Below are positions 84 through 62,258 of a DNA stretch of 64,000 nt, piece after piece. Both the position numbers and the translations under genes were made by a program. This DNA is from an uncultured bacterium (GTDB lineage Bacteria; Patescibacteriota; Minisyncoccia; Phycocordibacterales; CAWITU01): positions 212,627 to 276,626 of the forward strand of contig CAWITU010000002.1 in NCBI GenBank assembly GCA_963839205.1, written 5' to 3'. The notes beneath the pieces were generated by a model that ran no database searches, was not told the DNA's origin, and worked only from the letters and a program-made list of their open reading frames with translations. Positions within the stretch are counted from its first letter, which is position 1, and the number at the start of each line of letters is the position of its first letter.

Positions 84-1037
84 TTATTTTTTTAAAATAG
101 TATTAGCTATTGCCTCATACTTTTCAGCAATTCGATTCCAATCGAATTGCTTGGAGTAGCTACGAATGTTTTCTCTATTTTTTTCATTTTCTTCACATAA
201 CTTATTTGCCTTTTCGACTAAGTCTTCATCATCAATTGAAACAATTTTTATAAAGGGTAGGGAAAGATCAAGGTTTGCGGAGGCCTCAATACTTATTAAT
301 AGCGAAAGTCCTGCGGCTAAAGCTTCTCCAATAACTAGGGCGTGGGCTTCTCCATCACTCAGTAGAACTAAAACCTTATATTCAGTAAGTTTTTGTTTGA
401 CTTCTTCTCTGGTCCAAGTTCCTAGATACTTTGTCGATTTGTTGTTTACTGAAAAGTTATTATCTGTGATCGGTCCAACGAAGTCTAAGTATGTTTCTGA
501 CTGTCCGGAAAATTTTTTTGATAAATCGGCTTGTTTTTTTCTTGCTTCAATTTTACCTAAACAAATTATATCTTTTGAAGCGATTGGAGAAAAATATATT
601 TTATCTGTTTCCGTTCCGTTTGGTAGGACTTTTATATACCCATTGTAATGAAATTTTAGAAATACTTGTTTAATTTCATCGCTCAACACAATCATTGCGG
701 GTGAAAATAACATTTTTAGGAAAACTAACCAATATCCTCTAAACCATTTTGATGGCCAAGCGGCATATCCATAATGGCTAGTGATAACCAATTTAAAACC
801 ATGTAATTTTGAGAGTAGTATCCAAAGACCCGCAAAATCATCATATTCAAGATGAACCAAATCGTATATTTTTGGATTTGCTTTAAGTGCAGCTCGTAAC
901 CCTTTCTTATTTAGTATATCAACAGCATGGCCCCTCTTTTCAAGATGGATTTTGAGCTGCCAGATTACCGTTTCAACAGCACCCCAGCCATTGCTAGGAA
1001 TTTCCATAATACCCGGGCCAACTAGAAGTATTTTCAT
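84..1037 (-). CDS. glycosyltransferase, GT-B fold (GT4 / family-1-like)
   Basis: 317-aa ORF. The C-terminal LSDGEAHALVIGEALAAGL region resembles the E-x7-E donor-binding region of GT4 enzymes. 4-nt overlap with the upstream gene suggests an operon. Confidence 0.7.
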   Translation of the reverse strand: MKILLVGPGIMEIPSNGWGAVETVIWQLKIHLEKRGHAVDILNKKGLRAALKANPKIYDLVHLEYDDFAGLWILLSKLHGFKLVITSHYGYAAWPSKWFRGYWLVFLKMLFSPAMIVLSDEIKQVFLKFHYNGYIKVLPNGTETDKIYFSPIASKDIICLGKIEARKKQADLSKKFSGQSETYLDFVGPITDNNFSVNNKSTKYLGTWTREEVKQKLTEYKVLVLLSDGEAHALVIGEALAAGLSLLISIEASANLDLSLPFIKIVSIDDEDLVEKANKLCEENEKNRENIRSYSKQFDWNRIAEKYEAIANTILKK

Positions 1038-1813
1038 TGTAATAACAGTCCCTTTAACTTTGTCTTTACTTTTAATTTAAAAATTTGGAAGTTCGATTTA
1101 AATTTTACTCCATGAATTAACGCCGAGTTCCATTTACAAAATTCCATAATATATTTGCCGTCATTTTCTATAAAACCGCCGTGAATGTTTTTTGCTTCAG
1201 CCCAACTACCAATAGTACATCCGGAAATTATGCCTAAAATAGTAATGAGCAGATCCATGAAAGAACCCTCCGGATGATCTATATAAGCTTGTTTTATCTT
1301 GGGTAAATTATATAGACATTTCCTGAAAAATTCCTTCCTATAGATAGTACCGCCACAACCTGTATGCGGATAGGCTATAGCCCCATCCATATATTTACTA
1401 TGATCTATGGATTTCAAATCAAAATAATCGTACCAGAAGATATCAGGCACCCCAGATAAACCCAATGGGCCAGACATATCGTAAAGAGGTTCTTTTTCAA
1501 TTGGTTTTATTGTCAGTATATCAGTTTCGAGAAAAAGCGTGTGAGTCGTGTTATCGTCTCGAAGTCCATATTCAAAAAGATATTCAAACCACTTAAAGTC
1601 GAATGAACCGGTGTTACAGTGGGTATCTTTGTGCCAAATATTTTCAATATCTTTGTAATCACATTTATAACGACTCGCTACATTCTTTGCACTTTTGCCT
1701 CCATTATTGTAAACCAATATTGGTATATTGGGATGGAACTTACGGAAATTTTTTAATGTAAAATCTAGTCTTTCGTGATCATTACACATAAAAATAATGG
1801 CCTTTAGTTTCAT
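1034..1813 (-). CDS. hypothetical protein in the glycan cluster (possible sugar transferase)
   Basis: 259-aa ORF, translationally coupled to the downstream GT4 gene. I recognise no motif apart from a possible LETD (DxD-like) segment. Function is inferred from context only. Confidence 0.5.
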   Translation of the reverse strand: MKLKAIIFMCNDHERLDFTLKNFRKFHPNIPILVYNNGGKSAKNVASRYKCDYKDIENIWHKDTHCNTGSFDFKWFEYLFEYGLRDDNTTHTLFLETDILTIKPIEKEPLYDMSGPLGLSGVPDIFWYDYFDLKSIDHSKYMDGAIAYPHTGCGGTIYRKEFFRKCLYNLPKIKQAYIDHPEGSFMDLLITILGIISGCTIGSWAEAKNIHGGFIENDGKYIMEFCKWNSALIHGVKFKSNFQIFKLKVKTKLKGLLLQ

Positions 1814-3191: not shown

Positions 3192-5401
3192 ATGACATTA
3201 AATAAAGCCTTGCGCTGGATTAGTATTTTATCAATTTTTGCTATCGCTTTTGTCCCTTTGGTCGTTTCAAGTTATCTTTTTTTTCCATACATTACTGGTA
3301 AAAATGTCCTATTTAGGGCATTAGTTGAAATCGGTTTTGGAGCATGGCTTATTTTGGCTTTTCGAGACAGAAGATATCGTCTACCAGTTTCTTTTATAAC
3401 TGTTGCTTTGGGTGCATTTCTTTTTATACTTTTTATTGCAGACCTTCATGGCGTTTATTGGTATAAAAGTTTTTGGAGTAATTTTGAGAGAATGGAAGGG
3501 CTTGTAACTCATATCCATCTATTTTTATATTTCTTAGTTGTGAGCGCAATGATAAAAGGGGAGAACTTATGGAGACGATTCTTTCAGACATCACTGTGTT
3601 GTAAGTATTATCGTTGGATTTTTTGGTGTCGTTCAGTTGTTTCCCAATGGTTCTTTTATGAGCAATCGTATTGATGCGACCCTAGGAAATGCTGATTATT
3701 TAGCGGTCTATATGCTCTTTAATGCTTTCTTCGCACTTTATTTAATCCTTAGAAAAGAAACTGGCAGGGTGGAGAAATGGATATATTCAGCAGTCACTAT
3801 ATTTGATCTCATTATTATGTACTTCACCGCGACTCGAGGAGTAATTCTCGGTTTTGGTGTCGGTCTATTTGTGATGATGGTTTTCATTTCTATTTTTGAA
3901 AAAGAGAATCTTAATTTAAGAAAATGGTCTAGATGGATTATTGGTGTTTTGATCGCAATTGTTGTTATTTTTGTTTTAGCTGAAAGATGTGCCTGCTGTT
4001 AAAAATAATGCGGTTTTAGGACGCTTTGCTACAGCATCTCTTACTGGTGGTGATATCAGTGCCCGTTTTCAGATTTGGGGCATGGCTTTTCAAGGTTTTA
4101 AAGAGAGACCAATTTTAGGTTGGGGACAGGATAATTTCAATTTTGTTTTCAATAAATATTATAACCCTGGGATGTATGCTCAGGAGCAATGGTTCGATAG
4201 AAGTCATGATGTATTTCTGGATTGGCTGATTGCCGGTGGTATTTTGGGCTTACTTTCATATCTATTAATCTTTGCCGCGGCCGTCTACTATGTATGGAAG
4301 AAAGAGCACCATGCTTTTTTTGAGCGTTTTGTGCCATTCCTTAGAAAATCACAAAACCAACTATCAGTTGTTGAGAAAAGTCTAGTCACTGGGCTATTGG
4401 CTGGTTATTTTTTTCAGAACCTTTTTGTGTTCGATAACATCGTGAGCTACGTACTGTTCTTTTCTGTTTTGGCTTTTGTAGCCAGTATGTCTAAACCAAT
4501 TACTGAGATTGAATATGCCGAACCGAAAAGTGTTTTGGCAAATACTGCCGCAGTTTTAATTATTATATTGGTCTGTGTTGGAGTCTACGAGTTTGCTTGG
4601 AAGCCGTTTATTGCTGCTCATGATTTAGTTTACGCAATTGAAATTCAGCCAACGGGGGATGCAAGTACTAACATGACTTATTTTCAGGATGCACTGAATC
4701 AAAATACTGTAGGTAAGATAGAAATTATAGAACAGTTACTTAATTTTACTTCTGGATTAGTTGGTTCATCAGCAGTAACGCAAGACGCTAAAAATACGTT
4801 TGCTAATTATGCTGCAACTCAAATGCAAGACCAACTAGCTGAAACTCCAAATGATGCAAGAGAACTCCTCTTCTTTGGTGGTTTCCTTGCTGGTATTGGT
4901 TATCCAGATAAAGCTCTTGTTTATTTGCAAGAAGCTCACGCTGCTTCTCCAGAAAAACAGACAATCTCAATTGAGCTCGCATCTGATTACATTGCGCTCA
5001 AACAATATGACAATGCATACAATCTTTTGAAGACAACATATGAATCGGAGACTGCAGATACTCAGGCCGAAGAATTTTATGCTGTTACTGCTGTTTATGA
5101 TAATCATCCGGAGGTTGTAAAACAGTTGTATGGCACAGCTACGCCAGAAGATAGTCAGATAGCTCGAGCCTATATTGATAGCGGTTCATATGCGAATGGA
5201 AAAGCAATCATAACTCAGGAAATTAAAGATAATCCTAATGATGCTTCAAATTATGTACTCTTGGCCGGAATGTATTTAAAACAGGGTGATACAAAAGATG
5301 CGTTGATTTATTTGAACAAAGCTATACAGGTTGACCCAACATATACATCTCAGGTTCAGCCAATCATAGATCAAATTGAAGGTAAGACAGCAACGAATTG
5401 A
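3192..5401 (+). CDS. O-antigen-ligase-like (Wzy_C-type) polytopic membrane protein with C-terminal TPR repeats; frame broken twice as sequenced
   Basis: Three ORF fragments (3150..3674, 3637..4002, 3989..5401) read as one protein once 1-nt shifts near 3597 and 3980-3988 are corrected. Motifs FTATRGVILGFGVG and RFQIWGMAFQGFKERPILGWGQDNF are ligase-like. The C-terminal part has TPR-like repeats (ALVYLQEAHAASP, MYLKQGDTKDALIYLNKAIQVDP). The ATG at 3192 (MTLNKALRW) is more plausible than 3150. Confidence 0.6.
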
Positions 5402-6105: not shown

Positions 6106-8598
6106 ATGCTAAAATCGTTTCCTATGGCCTTCTTTTCAAATATATTAGGTAATTCCTCAACAAGGCAGGTCAGTGCTTTAAAACCATTGGTTACAAGCAT
6201 TAATTCGCTGGAGGAAAAAATGGCCGCACTTTCACAGGATCAAATCCGTGAGACGACGGAGTCGCTTAAAAAGGAGATAGCCTCGGGTAAAAGTTTAGAT
6301 GATATTTTACCTGAAGCTTTTGCATTAGTTCGAGAAGCTTCTAAGAGAACTTTAAATCAAAGACATTTTGATGTTCAGATTATTGGTGGTGCAATTCTCC
6401 ACTATGGAAAAATTGCTGAAATGAAAACTGGAGAAGGAAAAACTTTAGTTGCAACACTTCCTGCATATTTAAATGCACTTTCTGGTAAAGGAGTTCACAT
6501 CGTCACCGTTAATGATTATCTTTCTCGTAGAGACGCTGTTTGGATGGGCCAAATTTTTGATGTACTGGGTCTTTCCGTTGGAGTGATTAATCACGAGTCA
6601 TCATATCTATACGATTCTAAACATACTGAGATGGATTCAAAGCGAGATGAAGTTGCTTCGTTTAAGGTGGTCTATGAATTTTTAAGACCTTGCACTAGGC
6701 GGGAAGCATATGCGGCAGATATTACCTATGGAACGAATAATGAATTCGGTTTCGATTATTTAAGAGACAATATTGAACTTGATGCTAATAATTTAAGACA
6801 GCGTGGCTATCACTTTGCTATTGTCGATGAAATTGACTCAATTTTGATTGATGAGGCTAGAACCCCTCTCATTATTTCTATGCCGACTACAGAATCTGAA
6901 AATCTTTACACCATTTTTGCCACATTGGTTCGTAAGCTCAATATTGAAGAAGACTACACTGTAGATGAAAAGCTAAAAACCATCTCCTTAACTGATAATG
7001 GAATCACCAAGGCCGAGAAATTGCTTGGTGTTGATAATATTTATACTGAAAAAGGAATTAAATATGTTCACCATCTTGAAACGGCTGTTCGAGCCAAAGC
7101 CCTTTTTGAGAGAGACAAAGCTTATGTCGTTAAAGATGACGAAGTAATTATTGTTGATGAATTTACTGGGCGCCTTCAGCCTGGAAGGCGTTGGTCAGAA
7201 GGGCTCCACCAAGCTATTGAGGCTAAGGAAGGAGTTAAGATCCAAAAGGAATCTAGAACTTATGCTTCTATTACTTTCCAAAATTATTTTCGACTATATG
7301 AAAAGCTCGCTGGCATGACAGGTACTGCCCACACCTCAAGTGAAGAATTTTTCAAAGTATATGGGTTAGACACAGTTGTTATTCCAACTAATAAAGAGGT
7401 CAGAAGAAATGATCAAAACGATCTTATTTTCCAAACTGAGAAGGGTAAGTTTTCAGCAATCGCTAAAAAAATCAAAGAGTTGAATGAAAAAGGACAGCCG
7501 GTTCTTGTTGGCACTGTTTCAATTGAGAAAAATGAATTGCTATCGTCATATCTTTTGCGTGAAGGCGTAAAACATACTCTGCTTAATGCCAAACCAGAAT
7601 ATGCTGAACGTGAAGGTGAAATTATCGCTGAAGCTGGTAAACGAGGAGCCGTAACTATTTCGACAAACATGGCAGGTAGAGGAGTTGATATTAAACTCGG
7701 TGGTGCGGTAAATACTCCGGAATTACACGAAGAAGTTAAAAAGCTCGGTGGGCTATTTGTTTTGGGCACAGAACGGCATGAAGCTAGAAGAATTGATAAC
7801 CAGCTTCGTGGTCGTTCGGGCCGACAGGGAGACCCGGGCGAAACTCAATTCTACGTTTCATTGGAAGACGATTTGATGCGTATTTTTGCAACTGACAGTA
7901 TTAAAAAAATGATGGGACGTTTTGGTATTCCTGAAGATCAGCCAATTGAGAATGGTTTGATAACTCGCGCTCTTGAAAATGCCCAAAGCAAAATTGAAGG
8001 TTTTCATTTTGATGCCAGAAAGCACACTTTGGAATATGACGATGTTATGAACTTCCAGAGAAAGATTGTTTACGAAAGACGTCGAAAATTATTGCTCGGT
8101 GATGATGAGGAGGTACGTCAGGTTTTTGCTAAAATTACTGAAAATGCCACACCTGAAAAGGTAGAAATTATTGAAAAGAAAAAAACCGAGCTAGGTGAGG
8201 CGCTCTTCTATAATTCACTCAAAAAATTAATGCTCCAGACTAATGATATGTTCTGGATTGATCACCTTGAGATGATGGATTATCTTCGGGGCAGTGTAAA
8301 TCTTAGAGCTTATGGTCAAAGAGATCCTCTGGTTGAATATAAGAGAGAGGGGCTTAGGTTGTTTAAAGAAATGGAAGAATCGGTTAGCCAGGAAATTCTG
8401 CGCGCCGTCTCTTTTGTCGCTCCAACTCCAATGGTGACTGTTACACCAAATATAATTCCAGTTCAAACACAGACTATATATCCAAAAGGGGATGTCGGCA
8501 GAAATGATCCATGTCCTTGCGGATCTGGAAAGAAATGGAAAAAATGTGGTGAACTAAATACTGAAGAACATCAGAAACTAATGAGTCAGAAGAAGTAA
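6106..8598 (+). CDS. secA: preprotein translocase ATPase SecA
   Basis: 830-aa ORF with SecA motifs (MKTGEGKTLVATLPAYLNAL, DEIDSILIDEARTPLIIS, TNMAGRGVDIKLGG, RGRSGRQGDPG) and the C-terminal zinc motif CPCGSGKKWKKCG. An alternative start at 6124 (MAFFSNILG) is possible. Confidence 0.95.
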   Translation: MLKSFPMAFFSNILGNSSTRQVSALKPLVTSINSLEEKMAALSQDQIRETTESLKKEIASGKSLDDILPEAFALVREASKRTLNQRHFDVQIIGGAILHYGKIAEMKTGEGKTLVATLPAYLNALSGKGVHIVTVNDYLSRRDAVWMGQIFDVLGLSVGVINHESSYLYDSKHTEMDSKRDEVASFKVVYEFLRPCTRREAYAADITYGTNNEFGFDYLRDNIELDANNLRQRGYHFAIVDEIDSILIDEARTPLIISMPTTESENLYTIFATLVRKLNIEEDYTVDEKLKTISLTDNGITKAEKLLGVDNIYTEKGIKYVHHLETAVRAKALFERDKAYVVKDDEVIIVDEFTGRLQPGRRWSEGLHQAIEAKEGVKIQKESRTYASITFQNYFRLYEKLAGMTGTAHTSSEEFFKVYGLDTVVIPTNKEVRRNDQNDLIFQTEKGKFSAIAKKIKELNEKGQPVLVGTVSIEKNELLSSYLLREGVKHTLLNAKPEYAEREGEIIAEAGKRGAVTISTNMAGRGVDIKLGGAVNTPELHEEVKKLGGLFVLGTERHEARRIDNQLRGRSGRQGDPGETQFYVSLEDDLMRIFATDSIKKMMGRFGIPEDQPIENGLITRALENAQSKIEGFHFDARKHTLEYDDVMNFQRKIVYERRRKLLLGDDEEVRQVFAKITENATPEKVEIIEKKKTELGEALFYNSLKKLMLQTNDMFWIDHLEMMDYLRGSVNLRAYGQRDPLVEYKREGLRLFKEMEESVSQEILRAVSFVAPTPMVTVTPNIIPVQTQTIYPKGDVGRNDPCPCGSGKKWKKCGELNTEEHQKLMSQKK

Positions 8599-56282: not shown

Positions 56283-58266
56283 TTAAACCACCAAGTAATC
56301 TAGGGTCTTCTGTTCTAGATCTGCTCCAACAACTTTAAATTTTACTTTGTCCCCCAAAGTTAATTTATTTTTTGATTTAGAGCCGACTATTGCATAATTT
56401 TTTTCATCAAGTTCGTAATGGTCATCTTTCATTTCACGAAGTTTGGCCATTCCTTCGCATTTAGTATTTTCTTCTTCAATATAAATGCCCCATTCAGTAA
56501 CGCCCGAGATAATTCCTTCAAATATTTCTCCAACATGTTCAGACATATATTCAACTTGCTTCAATTTGATTGATTCTCGTTCAGCGGAAGAGGCCCGAAT
56601 TTCTTTTTCGGTTGAGTTCTCGGCGATTTTCTGCAAGCGGGAAAATTCCTTCTCTGGAATTTTCCCGCCATTTAGATGGTGGTGCAAAATCCTATGCACC
56701 ACCAAATCAGGATATCGTCTAATAGGGGACGTGAAATGCGTATAATATTCAAAAGCCAAACCAAAGTGGCCAATATTTCCGGTGTCATATACTGCCTTTG
56801 CCATTGATCTAATTGTTGCGGTTTTAACTAATGATTCCTCAGCTTTTCCCTCAACTTGTGCGAGTAGGGCATTAATATCTTTTGAAGTTACATGACCCTT
56901 TTTATCAGTTTTAAGCTCGTAGCCTAAAGCCTTTAGAAATAGAGACAATTCAATAATTCTTTCTCCTTCTGGAAGATCGTGAATTCTATATATGGAGAAA
57001 AGATTGTTTTTATTCTCAGACTTTTTATAAATATATTCAGCTACCTCTCGGTTAGCCAAAAGCATGTATTCCTCAACTAATTTATGTGCATCAAATCGGT
57101 GTTTTTTATAAACTCCCAAAGGCTTACCATTTTCATCTAATTTGAATTTAACTTCATCATTTTCAAAATCAATTGCGCCATGCTTAGTTTTTTCTGTACG
57201 GAAAATTTTTGCAAGATCATTTAAGGTTTTTAGTTCTTTATGAAATTCTTTTGAACTGTCAGTGATACTTTCCTGTGCTTTTTCATAAGTAAATCGTTTG
57301 TCTGAATTAATGATAGTTTTTCCAAACCATTTTGAAATTACTTTCGCGTTTTTATCAATTACAAATACTGCCGAAAAAGTTAATTTATCTTCTTTGGGAT
57401 TTAAACTACAAATGTCATTTGAAAGAACTTCTGGAAGCATGGGTATTGTTCGATCTACCAAATATACTGAAAGCCCACGTTTCAAGGCTTCTTTATCTAT
57501 TGAAGTTCCTGGGCGAACATAATGAGAAACGTCAGCAATATGAATTCCAATCTCATATTGATCATTCACCAATCTCCTTATATGATAATGCGTCATCAAA
57601 ATCCTTGGCGTCTTCTGGGTCAATTGTAAAAGTTAGTGTATTTCTAAAATCCTTTCTGGAAGCAATTTCACTATCTTGTATAGGCTTTTCAGTTTTTTCT
57701 AGCTGTTTTGCCTCAGCTTCTACTTGGACAGGGAAGCCAATCTCGAATCCCTTTTCAAGGACAATGGATTTCATTTCGGTATTGTTATCACCCTTCTTTC
57801 CAATTATCTCAATGATTTTTCCTATCGGATTTCTTTTAGGGTCACTCCAAGAAACTATTTCAACTTGAATCTTTTCACCAACTTTAGCTTTTCCAATTTC
57901 CTTATCAGGAACCACTATGTCGGTATACATTTTCTTATCATCAGGAACTAGAAAATAAATATCATTTTCCCGCTCTAGACTGCCAACGAATTTTGTCTTG
58001 ATTCGATTAACAATCTTTATTACTTCTGCTGTTTGTCTTCTTCCACTTTTGTGTAGAAGGGATATTTCAACGGTGTCACCATTTAGAGCGGTATTTAAAT
58101 AATTTTCTTCAATCATAATGTCGTCCTGCATTTTGCTTCGATCTCTTTCTTTCTTACCCCGCGAATCTTTTTGGCCGAGTATTTCGGGCGCAACAAAGCC
58201 AACACCTTTTGAATTGATGCTAATTGTTCCAATTATTTTTTTAGGTATATTTTTTTGTTTTTTCAT
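56283..58266 (-). CDS. rnr: ribonuclease R (RNB family exoribonuclease); one frameshift as sequenced
   Basis: The N-terminal fragment 57562..58266 (OB/CSD region, ends ..DPEDAKDFDDALSYKEIGE) and the fragment 56283..57623 (YEIGIHIADVSHYV, VYLVDRTIPMLPE, HFGLAFEYYTHFTSPIRRYPDLVVHR, C-terminal S1 domain) join by a 1-nt shift near 57565-57600. Confidence 0.9.
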
Positions 58267-58321: not shown

Positions 58322-58397
58322 TGGTGGGCGGTAGAGGATTCGAACCTCTGACATCAACAACGTCAATGTTGCGCTCTACCAACTGAGCTAACCGCCC
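58322..58397 (-). tRNA. tRNA-Val (anticodon GAC), CCA encoded
   Basis: The reverse complement reads gggcggt-ta-gctcagttggtagagc-g-caaca-ttGACgt-tgttg-atgtc-agagg-ttcgaat-cctct-accgccc-a-cca. Confidence 0.9.
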
Positions 58398-58434: not shown

Positions 58435-58974
58435 CTACTTATTTTTCCAGTTTATAAGGTGTTTTATAGTGACTAAGATAATTAGCGCTAACCAAGCAAT
58501 AATTATATCAAATTGTATTTTGCTTTCTCTTGACTCAACTTCTTTAATTGATCGTCCAGCAAGTATGTACCCTGATTGAGTACCGGAATAATAAGTGACT
58601 ACTGCGGCAATACGAGTATTGTCATTTGGTTGCCAAGTTAGTCTGTCTTCGCCGTGTTGTTTGGCATAAGTTAGAACACCTTGAGGAAGCTCTGGAATTT
58701 TATTACCAAGTTCAGCTTGAGATGCTTGAACAGTCCCTGATGCATCGTAAGCAATAACAAAAGGGGAGAGACTCTTCGAAATATCTATCATAGATGAAAA
58801 TAATGCAGGTGAAAGTGTTCCTCCTTGTGCAAGTCCGGTGGCAGTATTTTCGGCAATTTCAATTTGAGGATCATTTGCACTTAATCGGATGTCTTGTTGA
58901 ACTGCACCATAAACCAAAAGAGCAATAGCCGTGATAATTCCAATGGATAAGAACCAATTTAATATTTTATTCAT
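58435..58974 (-). CDS. hypothetical protein with N- and C-terminal TM segments
   Basis: The likely start is the ATG at 58974 (MNKILNWFLSIGIITAIALLVYG). The ORF-track start at 59076 would run through the tRNA-Ser duplicate and hairpin region. Confidence 0.5.
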   Translation of the reverse strand: MNKILNWFLSIGIITAIALLVYGAVQQDIRLSANDPQIEIAENTATGLAQGGTLSPALFSSMIDISKSLSPFVIAYDASGTVQASQAELGNKIPELPQGVLTYAKQHGEDRLTWQPNDNTRIAAVVTYYSGTQSGYILAGRSIKEVESRESKIQFDIIIAWLALIILVTIKHLINWKNK

Positions 58975-58999
58975 ATATTTATTTATTACTTCTATTATA

Positions 59000-59020
59000 C
59001 TGCGGAAGAGGTGGGATTTG
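59000..59020 (-). repeat. 21-bp exact duplicate of the tRNA-Ser 3' end (att-like direct repeat; partner at 59103-59123)
   Basis: ctgcggaagaggtgggatttg occurs at 59000-59020 and 59103-59123. It covers part of the T loop, the T stem 3' strand, the acceptor 3' strand, the discriminator base and 3 nt of trailer. Confidence 0.85.
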
Positions 59021-59047
59021 GTCACGAATAATTTTCTGCTGAAAATT

Positions 59048-59064
59048 TTCGCGACCCCGCCTCG
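59048..59064. repeat. left copy of a 17-bp perfect inverted repeat (ttcgcgaccccgcctcg)
   Basis: Its exact reverse complement is at 59438-59454. Each copy is part of a local GC-rich hairpin (gcgac..gtcgc). Confidence 0.85.
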
Positions 59065-59105
59065 GTGCCGTCGCACCTGCGGCTTTCAAATCCTACTATT
59101 TCCTG

Positions 59106-59192
59106 CGGAAGAGGTGGGATTTGAACCCACGAGAGGCTTTCGCCCCTGCCAGTTTTCGAAACTGGTGCCTTCAACCTCTCAGCCACTCTTCC
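59106..59192 (-). tRNA. tRNA-Ser (anticodon CGA), long variable arm
   Basis: The reverse complement reads ggaagag..ccagt-ttCGAaa-actgg-c-aggggcgaaagcctctc-gtggg-ttcaaat-cccac-ctcttcc-g; 87 nt. Confidence 0.9.
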
Positions 59193-59279
59193 ATATACTC
59201 AACTATAACAAAAAATGCTATATTTTCTAAGCTCTTCTATGGTTATGTGGGCCTGCCCTGCGTAGCCTTGCGAAGCAGG

Positions 59280-59351
59280 GGCCCTATCGTCTAATGGTTA
59301 GGACATCGCCTTCTCAAGGCGGTAATCCGGGTTCGACTCCCGGTAGGGTCA
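59280..59351 (+). tRNA. tRNA-Glu (anticodon CUC)
   Basis: ggcccta-tc-gtctaatggttaggac-a-tcgcc-ttCTCaa-ggcgg-taat-ccggg-ttcgact-cccgg-tagggtc-a. A probable extended -10 TGcTATATT lies near 59214-59222. Confidence 0.9.
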
Positions 59352-59405
59352 AAAAATGCGCTGATGCAAAAGGAGTGAACTGCTTCACTCCTTTTCGCAT
59401 TTTTT
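59351..59405. terminator. large bidirectional terminator hairpin
   Basis: Outer arms aaaaaatgcg / cgcatttttt and an inner 12-bp stem aaaaggagtgaa / ttcactcctttt (59368-59379 / 59384-59395). A/T runs on both sides. Confidence 0.75.
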
Positions 59406-59406
59406 G

Positions 59407-59750
59407 ATGCCGGAGCATATCGCCATTCCTGGCGATGCGAGGCGGGGTCGCGAACACTTAGTCCGCGCAGGCGTATGCCGAGCAGACTTAGTGATTCGTG
59501 ACATAAGCTAAAGGTATGAATTCCAGATAAATTAGCTCCTGACCCTGTGTGTAAATAAATTATAAAAATAAGAGATTGCCGGGCCGCCTGCGCAGCCCGG
59601 GATCTTGTTTTGTCTTTTCTGCTATGTCGACATTCGACAAGTATTCGCGACATACCCATAACCCGGGGAGGGCCAGCGGATTCAATCCCGTGTATGACAG
59701 ACCGGTTTAGCCGTGCGTCAATATCGGACTCGAGGGCGCTGGTACTAACA
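59407..59750 (-). ncRNA. candidate structured RNA of unassigned family, about 345 nt and GC-rich (strand inferred from the promoter)
   Basis: A consensus minus-strand promoter lies just upstream at 59757-59784. About 51% G+C by hand count. Stems at 59419-59436, 59447-59500 (about 18 bp, imperfect), 59506-59537, 59579-59600, 59623-59654 and 59674-59738. It ends at the 59351-59405 terminator. No credible ORF. Confidence 0.45.
59438..59454. repeat. right copy of the 17-bp perfect inverted repeat (cgaggcggggtcgcgaa)
   Basis: Exact reverse complement of 59048-59064. Confidence 0.85.
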
Positions 59751-59756
59751 ATTTAA

Positions 59757-59784
59757 ATTATAGCATGCATAAAAATATTGTCAA
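59757..59784 (-). promoter_or_regulatory. near-consensus extended sigma-70 promoter firing leftward
   Basis: On the minus strand: TTGACA (59784-59779), 16 nt, TGcTATAAT (59765-59757). Confidence 0.65.
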
Positions 59785-59860
59785 ATATTCCTAGTTATTA
59801 AAATAGTCAAAATTTATGTGGTACTATATTACTGGAAACCTTTAACAATGGAGAAATCAT

Positions 59861-61249
59861 ATGAACATTCCTTACGATTTGAAGGAAAAATGCGGGGTCT
59901 TCGGAATTTTTGACAATCAAAACGCAATCGGCTTAAACGTACGTGGCTTATTTGCTCTTCAGCATCGTGGTCAGGAAGCCGCTGGTATTGTTGCTTTTGG
60001 ACAACATGGTTGGAGCGCTTTCCGCGACCTCGGTCTTGTCAGTGATGTCTTTCAGCCAAAGAAGATTGATAAATTGGTGGGAACAAGCGCAATCGGTCAT
60101 GTCCGCTATTCAACAAGCGGGGATAACACTGACGATGATCGGGCTTTCATAAATATTCAGCCCCTCTTCGTTAATATGTCATTTGGGGGATTGCTATCGC
60201 CCACAACAGGGAATCTCACCAATACTGTGCAAATCCGAGAAGGGCTCATCAAGAAGGGGTGTGTTTTTCAATCGACTACTGACACTGAGGTGATTCTTCA
60301 TCTGATTGCAATAAGTTCTGAAATAAATTTGATTGCCAAGATTAAGGATTCACTATCGCAAATTAAAGGAGCCTACTCCTTAATTCTCCTAACCGGCGAC
60401 TCAATGATTGGCATCCGTGACCGATATGGTTTCGGCCGCTTGTCTTGGGGAGGACTCACACATCATATGTTCTCGCTTCGGAAACATGCGCACTAGATTC
60501 AATTGGTGCGGAATTTGTTCGCGAGATTAATCCTGGTGAAATAGTAAGCATCTCGAAAGGCAATCTTATATCTGATCAACTTCTAGGAGAGAAGTTTCAC
60601 TGTAATTGTAGTTTTGAGGCAGTGTATTTTTCTCGTCCAGACAGCCTCGTAAACGGGACCGATTATGGGTCTATTCGAGAAGAAATGGGCCGTGTGCTTG
60701 CTCGAGAATTCAATTCTGTTCATCAAAAAGTTAAGGTGGACTACGTGACCGGGGTTCCGGACTCTGGTATTCCCGCTCCCCGCGGTTTCCATTGGAATCA
60801 GAGATCCCTTACACAGACATTCTAGTTCGAAGCCACTATGTTGGGAGAACATTCATTCAACCATCACAAGCAACCAGAAAGACTCGGGTGGCTCTTAAAT
60901 TCAATCCCCGAAGGATATTTAAGGGTAAAAGCATTGTCTTAATTGATGATTCATTAGTTAGGGATTCAACGAGCCAAATCATCATTCAAATGTTGAGAGG
61001 TGCTGGTCTCGGTGAAATACACTTGTGTATTTCTAAGTGTCCGCCGTCAGTCATCCTTGCTTTTATGGTATTGATACACCTAAGGAAGAAGAGCTTCTGA
61101 CACACAAGATGAATCTCGAGGAAATGCGGAAATTCCTTGGCGTTGATACTTTAAGCTTTCTATCGGTAGATGGAATGAAAAATTGTATTGGCGGAAAGGG
61201 TCACTGCGTAGCTTGTTTTGTTGGGGAATATCCAGAATCAGTAAAATAA
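59861..61249 (+). CDS. purF: amidophosphoribosyltransferase; 3 or more frameshifts as sequenced
   Basis: A propeptide then the Ntn Cys (MNIPYDLKEKCGVFGIF). Also LQHRGQEAAGI, HVRYSTSG, SYVLASETCALDSIGAEFVREINPGEIV, VPDSGIP, ESEIPYTDILVRSHYVGRTFIQP, IVLIDDSLVR and the C-terminal CVACFVGEYP. Fragments 59861..60496, 60445..60825, 60792..61100 and 61037..61249. Confidence 0.9.
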
Positions 61250-61278
61250 TTTGATTAAGTCTGATTGCTGGATTTAAT

Positions 61279-61336: not shown

Positions 61337-62258
61337 TCACTTCGTATGTAAATGGACAAAAATATCTTCGAGAGCTTTTACAGCATCGCCAGCCGCTATA
61401 TTATTTTGGTGATATAAACCATCTGTTACATCACCCGCCGCCCAGATTCCTGAGGTTTTGGTCTGTTGGTTCTTTGGGTCAACTATTATGTGATTGAATT
61501 TATCTAACTCAACTAAATCTTTAAGAAATGAGGTGTTTGGTATAAGTCCAATTTCAACAAAAACTCCAGAAATAGGAAGTTCTTTAGTTTCTCCAGTAGT
61601 TATATTTTTATAGGAAATAGCATTAACGAATTTGTTGCCTTTAACTTCTGTTATAACAGCATTCGTAATAACTTTCATTTTTTGATTAGAAGTAATTTTT
61701 TCAACTGTAACAGGATCGGCTCTAAAATTATTACTTCGGTTTATAAGGGTGACACTTTTGCAATAAGTCAAAAGTTGAGCACAGGTTTCAAAGGCAGCGT
61801 TTCCGCCCCCCACGACCACGACATCTTGATCCGCAAAAAGCGGCCCATCGCAGGTAGCACAATAGGTTAGTCCTTTATTATCAAATTCTAGAGCACCTTT
61901 TGCTTCAAGTTTTCGCCTGGTACTTCCTGTAGTTATTAATATTGTTTTAGCTTCGTATGATTCATCTCCACTTTTAATAACAAAACTATATTCCTTTTTT
62001 CTCGATTTTCTCAATCCAAGCGTTATCTCTAATGTCTACAGAGGGGGAGGCGTAGGCCAAAAGATGAGCCTTTAAATTTTTAGCTAAATCCTCTCCACTT
62101 ATGTTGATTGTTCCAATCCAATTTTCAATACCAGCGGAAACAATACTTTGTCCCCCCCAATCCTTGGTTAAAAAAATAGTTTTAAGTTTTTTTCGGGAAG
62201 CATAGACACCAGCGGCAATACCGGCGGGACCCCCTCCGATTATGGCGAGATCGTACAT
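61337..62258 (-). CDS. trxB: thioredoxin-disulfide reductase; one frameshift as sequenced
   Basis: N-terminal YDLAIIGGGPAGIAAGVYASR (FAD), redox-active CATCDG, VVVVGGGNAAFE (NADPH) and AAGDV. Fragments 61986..62258 and 61337..62014 join at the T6/A6 run near 62000-62010. Confidence 0.9.

Follow-up and report, generated by a model that had tools for sequence, protein, structure and literature searches.

A strand-specific element family linked to tRNA 3ʹ ends in Patescibacteria, and a putative convergent transcript, beside a tRNA-Glu gene

Integrative elements, as Williams is said to have described in 2002, have attachment (att) sites in tRNA and transfer-messenger RNA (tmRNA) genes at T-loop and 3ʹ-end sublocations; the T-loop and the acceptor end are the sublocations used by tyrosine integrases. 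Other RNAs are embedded in tRNA-like helices or processed via them, such as mascRNA from MALAT1, bacterial YrlA and engineered tRNA scaffolds. The R2 retrotransposon has a 5ʹ ribozyme resembling that of hepatitis delta virus, co-transcribed with the 28S rRNA. Short multi-copy intergenic hairpin repeats include repetitive extragenic palindromic (REP) sequences and REPINs, Rickettsia palindromic elements and Correia elements. The closest report returned by literature searches describes group I introns within tRNA genes of Patescibacteria, which split the anticodon loop at position 35/36 (PMC13011429). Here we analyzed a GC-rich stretch, positions 59351-59790 of a 64,000-nt window of DNA whose numbering is used throughout, which a first-pass annotation had read as one orphan minus-strand RNA of about 345 nt. 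The stretch consists of two convergent units on opposite strands, not of one RNA. Unit A, on the plus strand at 59349-59510, is a member of a large, covarying, strand-specific Patescibacteria family linked to tRNA and tmRNA 3ʹ ends, which we call family 1. Family 1 has no entry in Rfam 15, and no description of it was found in the literature when searched by sequence strings and by topic, so that it is apparently undescribed. Unit B, on the minus strand, is a putative transcript behind a predicted promoter.

A repeat scan found CGAGGCGGGGTCGCGAA, located at 59438-59454 on the plus strand, again in inverted orientation at 59064-59048, next to a tRNA-Ser gene. When the two copies were aligned, they shared a frame composed of GCCGSAG, a hairpin, CGAGGCGGGG, GUCGCGAA, a second hairpin and AUUCGUGAC. 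The GUCGCGAA/UUCGUGAC stem contains a G·U pair on the tRNA-sense strand that would be A·C on the other strand, and therefore the copy in the flagged stretch was read on the plus strand.

Relatives were collected in a single scan of 185,579 species genomes with the pattern GGCGGGGTCRCGAA-N15-45-TTCGYGAC, which returned 93 loci. About 66 of them belonged to Patescibacteria (Saccharibacteria, Paceibacterota, Kaiser-, Nomura-, Moran-, Yonath- and Campbellbacteria, and Minisyncoccia) and shared the wider frame, and the other 27 were high-G+C chance matches within genes. A covariance model, R1, built on a 32-sequence alignment (A2), gave these 27 at most 30 bits. R1 found exactly two copies in the window, those following tRNA-Ser and tRNA-Glu, and 94 copies of 30-81 bits in 65 loci of the Candidate Phyla Radiation (CPR) other than the window. 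Sixty-six of the 94 match the seed pattern; the remaining 28 do not, and are hence free of that ascertainment.

Tandem copies are common, and different genomes may have or lack the element behind the same tRNA. Within a genome, the hairpins H2 and P3 vary widely between copies, and the unpaired junction bases are fixed across CPR classes. The segment 59340-59510, including the hairpin that had been called a terminator, showed near-full-length nhmmer homology to six loci (L179, L156, L196, L137, L132 and L181). The order tRNA-Ser(-), tRNA-Glu(+), element was seen again in L181, and tRNA-Glu followed by the element in L160 and L127. No viral contig matched a gapped family pattern, a 14-mer scan of viral contigs gave chance matches only, and blastn of the locus returned no phage or plasmid record. 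In a Nomurabacteria locus (L165), a tRNA with anticodon UUA at 761-834(+), called 'tRNA-Stop' by ARAGORN, precedes two tandem copies and may be a suppressor tRNA or a mis-called one. In L125, a copy at 4257-4335(-) lies just past a 23S/tRNA-Val/5S rRNA operon on the opposite strand and converges on the 5S gene, as an exception to the same-strand rule.

Family 1 folds as a three-way junction. The closing helix P1 is variable; P2 consists of GCC paired with GGC, a G-N-A/G-A internal loop and the variable hairpin H2; P3 has a GUCGCGAA/UUCGUGAC base with the conserved G·U, then a variable extension; and the junction holds invariant unpaired bases. Both window copies fit the R1 signature GCC-GNA-(H2)-GA-GGC-GGG-GUCGCGAA...UUCGUGAC. 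In alignment A2, 88.6% of the cells in the four helices are paired, and the covariation score of 0.380, compared with 0.125 in shuffles (0/500), collapsed when partners were slid by 1-3 columns. The 28 pattern-free copies still exchange GCC/GGC for GGC/GCC or GAC/GUC, and their P3 pairs are changed on both sides. The structure is also strand-specific. When H2 and P3 of 63 copies were folded on each strand, 116 G·U pairs were formed on the tRNA-sense strand versus 28 on the other, and P3 was more stable on the tRNA-sense strand in all 63. A kissing interaction of the CUGC loop of the upstream hairpin H1 with GCAG in the core was considered and rejected, as the loop is unchanged where the core has GGAG.

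The family is tied to tRNA and tmRNA genes. A same-strand tRNA or tmRNA lies within 500 nt upstream of 77 of the 94 copies and within 120 nt of 61; with two further copies that follow tmRNAs detected by Rfam only, 84% are located 3ʹ of such a gene. Conversely, one or more copies come after 65 of the 121 tRNA and tmRNA genes in the family loci, which cover seventeen tRNA types. On its 5ʹ side, the core is immediately preceded by a segment complementary to the upstream tRNA at its 3ʹ end and trailer, with a longest perfect run of 9.5 nt on average and up to 20 nt. This complementarity exceeds that to the element's own 3ʹ flank in 60 of 73 copies (mean run 9.5 vs 6.1 nt). Several loci have a single long palindrome that is made up of the tRNA end, trailer, hairpin and inverted copy. 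On the 3ʹ side, 30 of 95 copies have a flank that matches the tRNA 3ʹ end as a direct repeat at 12/16 or better (13 of them perfectly), compared with 4 in controls. These direct repeats are 19-21 nt long, with their starts either within the T-loop or at the final three tRNA bases, and P1 often copies the tRNA 3ʹ end.

A further hairpin, H1, which ends 10-14 nt before P1 and carries an invariant AACUGCUU loop on covarying and quite different stems, was found in 27 of 94 copies versus 5 in the downstream control. In the compact copies of L208, L172, L175 and L196, a canonical terminator comes after the element in place of a terminator-like hairpin between tRNA and core. The AACUGCUU loop is also readable as CUGC with closing A-U pairs. 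A CUGC tetraloop with a C-G closing pair, CCUGCG(G), occurs in many post-tRNA hairpins and in one hairpin after a protein gene (L124, L199, L181, L174, L141, L170, L210 and L140), and one of the same type is found just upstream of tRNA-Glu in the window (59249-59284). Three loci hold a second, unrelated structured insert, family 2, which is rare: L186 ~3510-3608(-), L146 ~1147-1244(-) and L193 ~6375-6468(+). It consists of AAGCUUU...GGUGUACUG, a hairpin with a CCUGUAAGG loop, then CGAG, and is placed directly after a family-1 copy, between the inverted and direct copies of the tRNA 3ʹ end. Family 2 was looked for in the window and was absent.

The two window copies differ in their flanks. Unit A starts its core within 200 nt 3ʹ of tRNA-Glu on the same strand, and the plus-strand minimum free energy (MFE) fold of 59352-59512 matches the family structure (z = -6.4; 0/200 shuffles). 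The outer arms of its H1 module are at 59349-59360 and 59396-59407, the left arm beginning in the final 3 nt of tRNA-Glu, and the AACUGCUU loop, at 59378-59385, ends 13 nt before the core. The inner hairpin followed by CGCATTTTTT was called a plus-strand terminator (hairpin and U-tract) by a terminator scan. Between the segment that precedes the core and the tRNA end and trailer, the longest perfect complementary run is 11 nt. The 3ʹ flank matches the tRNA end at 10/16, which is background, and there is no att-like direct repeat.

The copy at tRNA-Ser(CGA), which is encoded at 59105-59192(-), has no H1 and starts 12 nt past the tRNA 3ʹ end. It lies in an 82-nt insert bounded by perfect 21-nt direct repeats of the tRNA-Ser 3ʹ end (59000-59020 and 59103-59123), and its flank repeat is 16/16. 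No open reading frame (ORF) is present in the 82 nt, so there is no integrase or cargo between the repeats; integrases elsewhere in the genome were not searched for. Of the marks of a tyrosine-integrase integrative element, this copy has the att-like 21-nt repeats and lacks an integrase and cargo between them.

Unit B begins at a predicted minus-strand promoter whose -35 box TTGACA (59784-59779), 16-nt spacer ending in TGc and -10 box TATAAT (59762-59757) match the consensus at every position. The only other match of this quality in 64 kb, at 31790(-), is 31 nt upstream of a gene start, which suggests that perfect matches in this DNA mark real promoters, and judged from its sequence the promoter of unit B is very likely real. 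The promoter at 31790(-) is itself back to back with an 11/12 promoter at 31801(+) (31763-31830), and its -10 box ends about 10 nt before an ATG at 31752, suggesting a very short or absent leader.

The promoter of unit B probably drives a minus-strand transcript of about 175 nt that would end at a GC clamp hairpin. The seventh pair of the clamp is U·G on the minus strand versus C·A on the plus strand, and pairing is thus better on the minus strand. A consensus terminator scan does not call the clamp, and the T-tract begins 4-5 nt past the stem. The clamp probably terminates the minus-strand transcript and could also halt read-through on the plus strand. The minus strand of unit B holds GTCGCGAATACTT, 12/13 identical to the start of family-1 P3, and a T-arm-like CGAGTCCGATATTGACGCAC with an imperfect inverted copy; unit B is nevertheless not a family member, as R1 gave no match there even with filters off. 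No nhmmer match to 59500-59800 was found among the CPR loci, and an 18-mer scan of metagenome contigs with unit B gave 21 loci, all in unrelated coding sequence. Exact look-ups of the neighbouring proteins for close relatives returned only a 5-kb contig that ends short of the locus, and homologs of a 179-aa neighbour protein are at most 54% identical, save one on a 984-bp contig, with contigs that are not syntenic. Because hardly any close relatives are in the protein collection and distant ones show no synteny, the lack of conservation at 59511-59756 is only weak evidence. Antisense promoters downstream of other family copies were not enriched (0.22 vs 0.15 per kb).

These results revise the first-pass annotation in several respects. 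The absence of known RNAs that it had reported was confirmed: Rfam 15 at gathering score contains nothing in the window except four tRNAs, and on both strands nothing at E<=10 was found in 59250-59900 beyond tRNA-Glu and tRNA-like look-alikes, nor beyond tRNAs in 59480-59800 and 58960-59130. Ribozyme and riboswitch models of Rfam gave nothing at E<=10 for either window copy and nothing at gathering score over 18 related loci. With ARAGORN also negative and the family conserved in CPR, a structured element without a known-RNA match was upheld. All of the helices listed earlier are present in MFE folds on both strands, and the ORF at 59291-59659(-), dismissed as non-coding, has no Pfam match and no such gene product on record. 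The promoter is perfect as described, but ties with the one at 31790(-) and is not the single best in the window. The GC-rich character also held, at 51.6% G+C for 59406-59750, against 38.6% for the window rather than the supposed one-third. The bidirectional terminator proposed at 59351-59405 does contain a terminator-like hairpin within a 12-nt inverted repeat, but it is the conserved H1 module of a plus-strand element. A search for relatives among Patescibacteria, as the annotation had suggested, found homology for 59340-59510 and not for 59500-59800, and compensatory changes are present for the family structure of the left half. A fallback suggestion of two convergent RNAs came close to our findings, except that the units are divided at ~59510-59578 and not at the GC clamp.

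Housekeeping RNAs were rejected as candidates. For RNase P RNA, a single-copy RNA with CR-I GAGGAAAGUCC and CR-V ACAGAAnnCGGCUUA forming P4 and a type A or B model, no model scored at E<=10 on either strand. The weak RNase P-like strings seen earlier lie in unrelated parts, and one of them, AGUCCG, sits inside the repeated P3 hairpin of the multi-copy element. No tmRNA, an RNA marked by tRNA-like ends with T-arm and ACCA and by a tag frame, was found in the window by ARAGORN or Rfam, though both detect tmRNAs in related loci. Signal recognition particle (SRP) RNA, with its domain IV motif, and 6S RNA, with its closing stem and central bubble, had no Rfam match at E<=10. The multi-copy nature of the element also argues against a housekeeping RNA. 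A tRNA with a group I intron was rejected likewise, as the tRNAs are intact and no intron model matches.

Table 1. Positions, strands and supporting evidence for the features at and around the flagged stretch
Feature	Position	Strand	Evidence or remark
tRNA-Glu(CUC)	59280-59351	+	ARAGORN; Rfam tRNA 62.6 bits; CCA not encoded; unit A follows
H1 module	59349-59407	+	12-nt outer inverted repeat TCAAAAAATGCG / CGCATTTTTTGA; inner hairpin 59368-59395
Family-1 three-way-junction core	59399-59510	+	R1 65.5 bits, E 1.7e-13, full length
Core P1	59399-59405 with 59503-59509	+	weak, 5/7 pairs
Core P2a	GCC 59409-59411 with GGC 59441-59443	+	family model
Core internal loop GGA / GA; H2 hairpin	59415-59438 (H2)	+	
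Core J2/3	GGG 59444-59446	+	
Core P3	59447-59502	+	GUCGCGAA...UUCGUGAC base, conserved G·U
AT-rich spacer between the convergent units	59511-59578	none	sequence; no notable fold
GC clamp hairpin	59579-59600	-	9 bp, GCAG loop on minus; T-rich tracts both sides
Putative orphan transcript, unit B	59572-59750	-	~175-180 nt; promoter position and fold
Unit B helices: long irregular 5ʹ hairpin, middle hairpin, GC clamp	59741-59672 (5ʹ hairpin); 59654-59623 (middle)	-	
Predicted sigma-70-type promoter, TTGACA-16-(TGc)TATAAT	59757-59784	-	12/12 and TG extension; predicted start near 59750
Minimal family-1 copy, 81 nt	59013-59093	-	R1 75.8 bits; fold z = -5.5

The surroundings of the two units were also examined. 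CCA is encoded in tRNA-Val at 58322-58397(-), which has no trailing element; it is not encoded in tRNA-Ser, tRNA-Glu or tRNA-Thr (23210-23283(+)). The relation does not look like a rule, because tRNAs with encoded CCA do carry the element in other loci. Three flanking genes are each broken into overlapping ORFs in different frames: one amidophosphoribosyltransferase-like at 59861-61250(+) (at least 4 frames), RNase R at 56283-58266(-) (234 + 446 aa) and one thioredoxin-reductase-like at 61337-62258(-) (90 + 225 aa). Either local gene decay or assembly indels would account for this. The 179-aa protein adjoining tRNA-Ser (58435-58974(-)) is a predicted membrane protein with 105 homologs, mostly unnamed, one of which is labelled Candidatus Saccharimonadales, and with a sub-threshold, weak match to a type IV secretion pilin (E 0.006). 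A longer ORF of 213 aa that begins at a GTG runs into the small element copy, and its start is unlikely to be the genuine one. The sequence AACTGCTT has 8 sites in the window versus 3.3 expected, a number reached by 0/100 shuffles; the sites include 12115, 13621, 23062, 34643, 39634, 46370 and 49847, and seven of the eight are away from the element.

As the best explanation of the whole, to which we give a probability of about 55%, unit A is a tRNA-trailing structured RNA element and unit B a lineage-specific minus-strand transcript. For unit A we favour an RNA that is transcribed together with the tRNA as part of its trailer and that originated by mobility or duplication. It would act as an RNA made within the tRNA 3ʹ trailer, transcribed directly at tRNA-Ser, where no terminator intervenes, and by read-through of H1 elsewhere. 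It is predicted to fold into a compact junction with a closing helix that copies the acceptor/T-arm end of the tRNA. The copied end may serve tRNA-processing enzymes as a second substrate-like end, a handle or a mimic, from which a discrete small RNA would be released. Copies may have arisen via site-specific insertion or templated duplication at tRNA 3ʹ ends and then spread and decayed locally, with unequal crossing-over producing the arrays. Unit B would be a lineage-specific transcript running from the consensus promoter to the GC clamp, with a fragmentary resemblance to the P3 start only. On a broader and distinctly tentative view, which is more speculative than likely, family 1 and the rarer family 2 would form a new Patescibacteria-specific class of RNAs in tRNA and tmRNA 3ʹ trailers, with flanks copied from, and able to pair with, the tRNA 3ʹ end. 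Such a class would be either a switch or mimic that gates 3ʹ-end maturation of many tRNAs simultaneously, or a small insertion element to which base pairing shows the way to tRNA 3ʹ ends.

Several observations weigh against this explanation. Transcription of units A and B is a prediction from sequence. A terminator-like hairpin and U-tract lie between tRNA and core in 39 of 71 copies, including the one at tRNA-Glu, so co-transcription would need read-through. About 16% of the copies have no upstream tRNA, and one (L140) follows a protein gene. Mimicry of tRNA is not universal, as the tRNA-Glu copy has a weak P1 and no long tRNA-end repeat. Single-stranded DNA hairpins that tolerate G·T would yield the same strand bias and covariation. 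The sample was seeded with one exact pattern, and therefore in 66 of the 94 copies the invariance of GGCGGGGTCRCGAA and TTCGYGAC is in part built in. Support for unit B is weak: it has no conservation signal, and its minus-strand fold (59572-59750) is only marginally better than shuffles (z = -2.2; 5/200).

Among the alternatives, a single minus-strand small RNA of ~345 nt, running from the promoter at 59784 to the 59351-59405 terminator as a divergent housekeeping or new RNA, is most improbable. It draws on the perfect promoter, on the fold of the minus strand as a whole (z = -3.3) and on a 59349-59407 hairpin symmetric enough for two-way termination. However, its 3ʹ 160 nt are the antisense of the plus-strand, tRNA-Glu-linked element, since 59349-59510 is a repeated element whose structure is plus-strand-specific. 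Housekeeping RNAs are single-copy, whereas this element occurs twice in the window and 94 times in 65 other loci, with no enrichment of antisense promoters at the latter. The GC clamp, a strong hairpin with a T-rich tail, also stands halfway along the supposed RNA, and the models of RNase P, tmRNA, SRP and 6S are all silent at E<=10. For the right half, we regard it as possible, yet somewhat unlikely, that unit B is not a gene: it may be decayed debris of an older, oppositely oriented insertion, the promoter being left from a lost or moved gene, e.g. a tRNA. The 12/13 match of GTCGCGAATACTT to the P3 start and the T-arm-like CGAGTCCGATATTGACGCAC with its imperfect inverted copy suggest such an origin, no homolog appeared in Rfam, the CPR loci or the metagenome 18-mer scan, and local decay is plausible because the neighbouring genes are frameshifted. 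Yet the promoter is intact to its last base and so is the GC clamp, R1 is silent in unit B with filters off, and the resemblances are short and could be partly chance.

Unit A could also be a relic at the DNA level with no role as RNA, which we judge unlikely. It would then be a footprint left at tRNA 3ʹ ends by site-specific integration (an emptied attL/attR pair) or a miniature non-autonomous integrative element moved in trans by a recombinase, with hairpins recognized as DNA. The 19-21-nt direct repeats of the tRNA 3ʹ end that start in the T-loop or acceptor end fit this idea, as do the tandem arrays, the patchy presence after orthologous tRNAs, the L140 copy with a partial repeat of the 3ʹ end of its protein gene, and the terminators that often separate tRNA and core. 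The inserts, however, are just 80-170 nt, no viral contig matched by pattern, and blastn found no phage or plasmid record. The wide divergence of H2 and P3 within a genome together with fixed junction bases across CPR classes is unlike a recent burst of mobile DNA. Asymmetry of the G·U type and compensatory changes are typical of RNA, and orientation tracks the tRNA, not replication, the window copies being on opposite strands. Another possibility, which seems very unlikely to us, is an RNA switch located 3ʹ of the RNA it controls, where the 5ʹ segment pairs with the tRNA 3ʹ end and trailer, blocking folding or 3ʹ processing, or else closes P1, as decided by a ligand or protein bound at the junction. 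Complementarity of the 5ʹ segment to both the tRNA end or trailer and the 3ʹ flank would allow this; a three-way junction with invariant unpaired bases is aptamer-like, and a global signal would require one element behind many tRNAs and tmRNA, as is seen here. Nevertheless, the tRNA folds before the competitor segment is made, the complementarity in copies like that of tRNA-Glu consists of the A-tract and U-tract arms of a bidirectional terminator, and the gene context suggests no ligand.

Patescibacteria are a large share of bacterial diversity, and their non-coding RNAs are almost unstudied. In the sampled carrier loci, about half of the tRNA and tmRNA genes have the element, whose range extends from Saccharibacteria to Paceibacteria. 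As an RNA linked to tRNA 3ʹ ends, it would be relevant to tRNA processing and control in reduced genomes; as a miniature insertion element, it would stand out for its conserved folded core and for carrying a copy of its target. For annotation, GC-rich "orphan RNA" signals beside CPR tRNA genes are best read on the strand of the tRNA.

Compared with the systems described at the outset, family 1 resembles the att sites of tRNA and tmRNA genes in its 19-21-nt direct repeat of the tRNA 3ʹ end with the tRNA gene left intact, in having both tRNA and tmRNA as targets and in tandem arrays that can accumulate. Unlike them, it has an insert of 80-170 nt with a conserved, covarying, strand-specific three-way junction and an inverted copy of the tRNA end, and it follows more than half of the tRNA genes in some loci. 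As in mascRNA, YrlA and the tRNA scaffolds, a helix copied from the acceptor/T-arm closes a foreign RNA domain, predicted to be excisable by RNase P, RNase Z and the CCA-adding enzyme; in contrast to these, family 1 mimics the very tRNA upstream of it and places a 60-110-nt junction at the T-loop position, and many copies, including that of tRNA-Glu, have a short P1 that is not tRNA-like. With REP sequences and repeats like miniature inverted-repeat transposable elements it shares a short, multi-copy, hairpin-forming build and a frequent intergenic location at the 3ʹ ends of transcription units, overlapping terminators. Its core, however, is conserved across whole CPR classes and not within a genus, its hairpins diverge in a compensatory manner around fixed unpaired bases, and it is tied to tRNA 3ʹ ends on one strand. 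R2 is a site-specific insertion in a structural-RNA gene, co-transcribed with its host and with a structured RNA whose helix includes host sequence, as would hold for family 1, but family 1 has no reverse transcriptase or any other ORF and matches no ribozyme model. Like the group I introns of Patescibacteria tRNA genes (PMC13011429), it would be a CPR-specific structured RNA insertion tied to tRNA genes that escapes standard annotation; unlike them, it follows an intact tRNA and matches no intron model. Family 1 appears to be kin to tRNA-linked insertions and to tRNA-mimic RNAs, with a real chance that it is something further removed.

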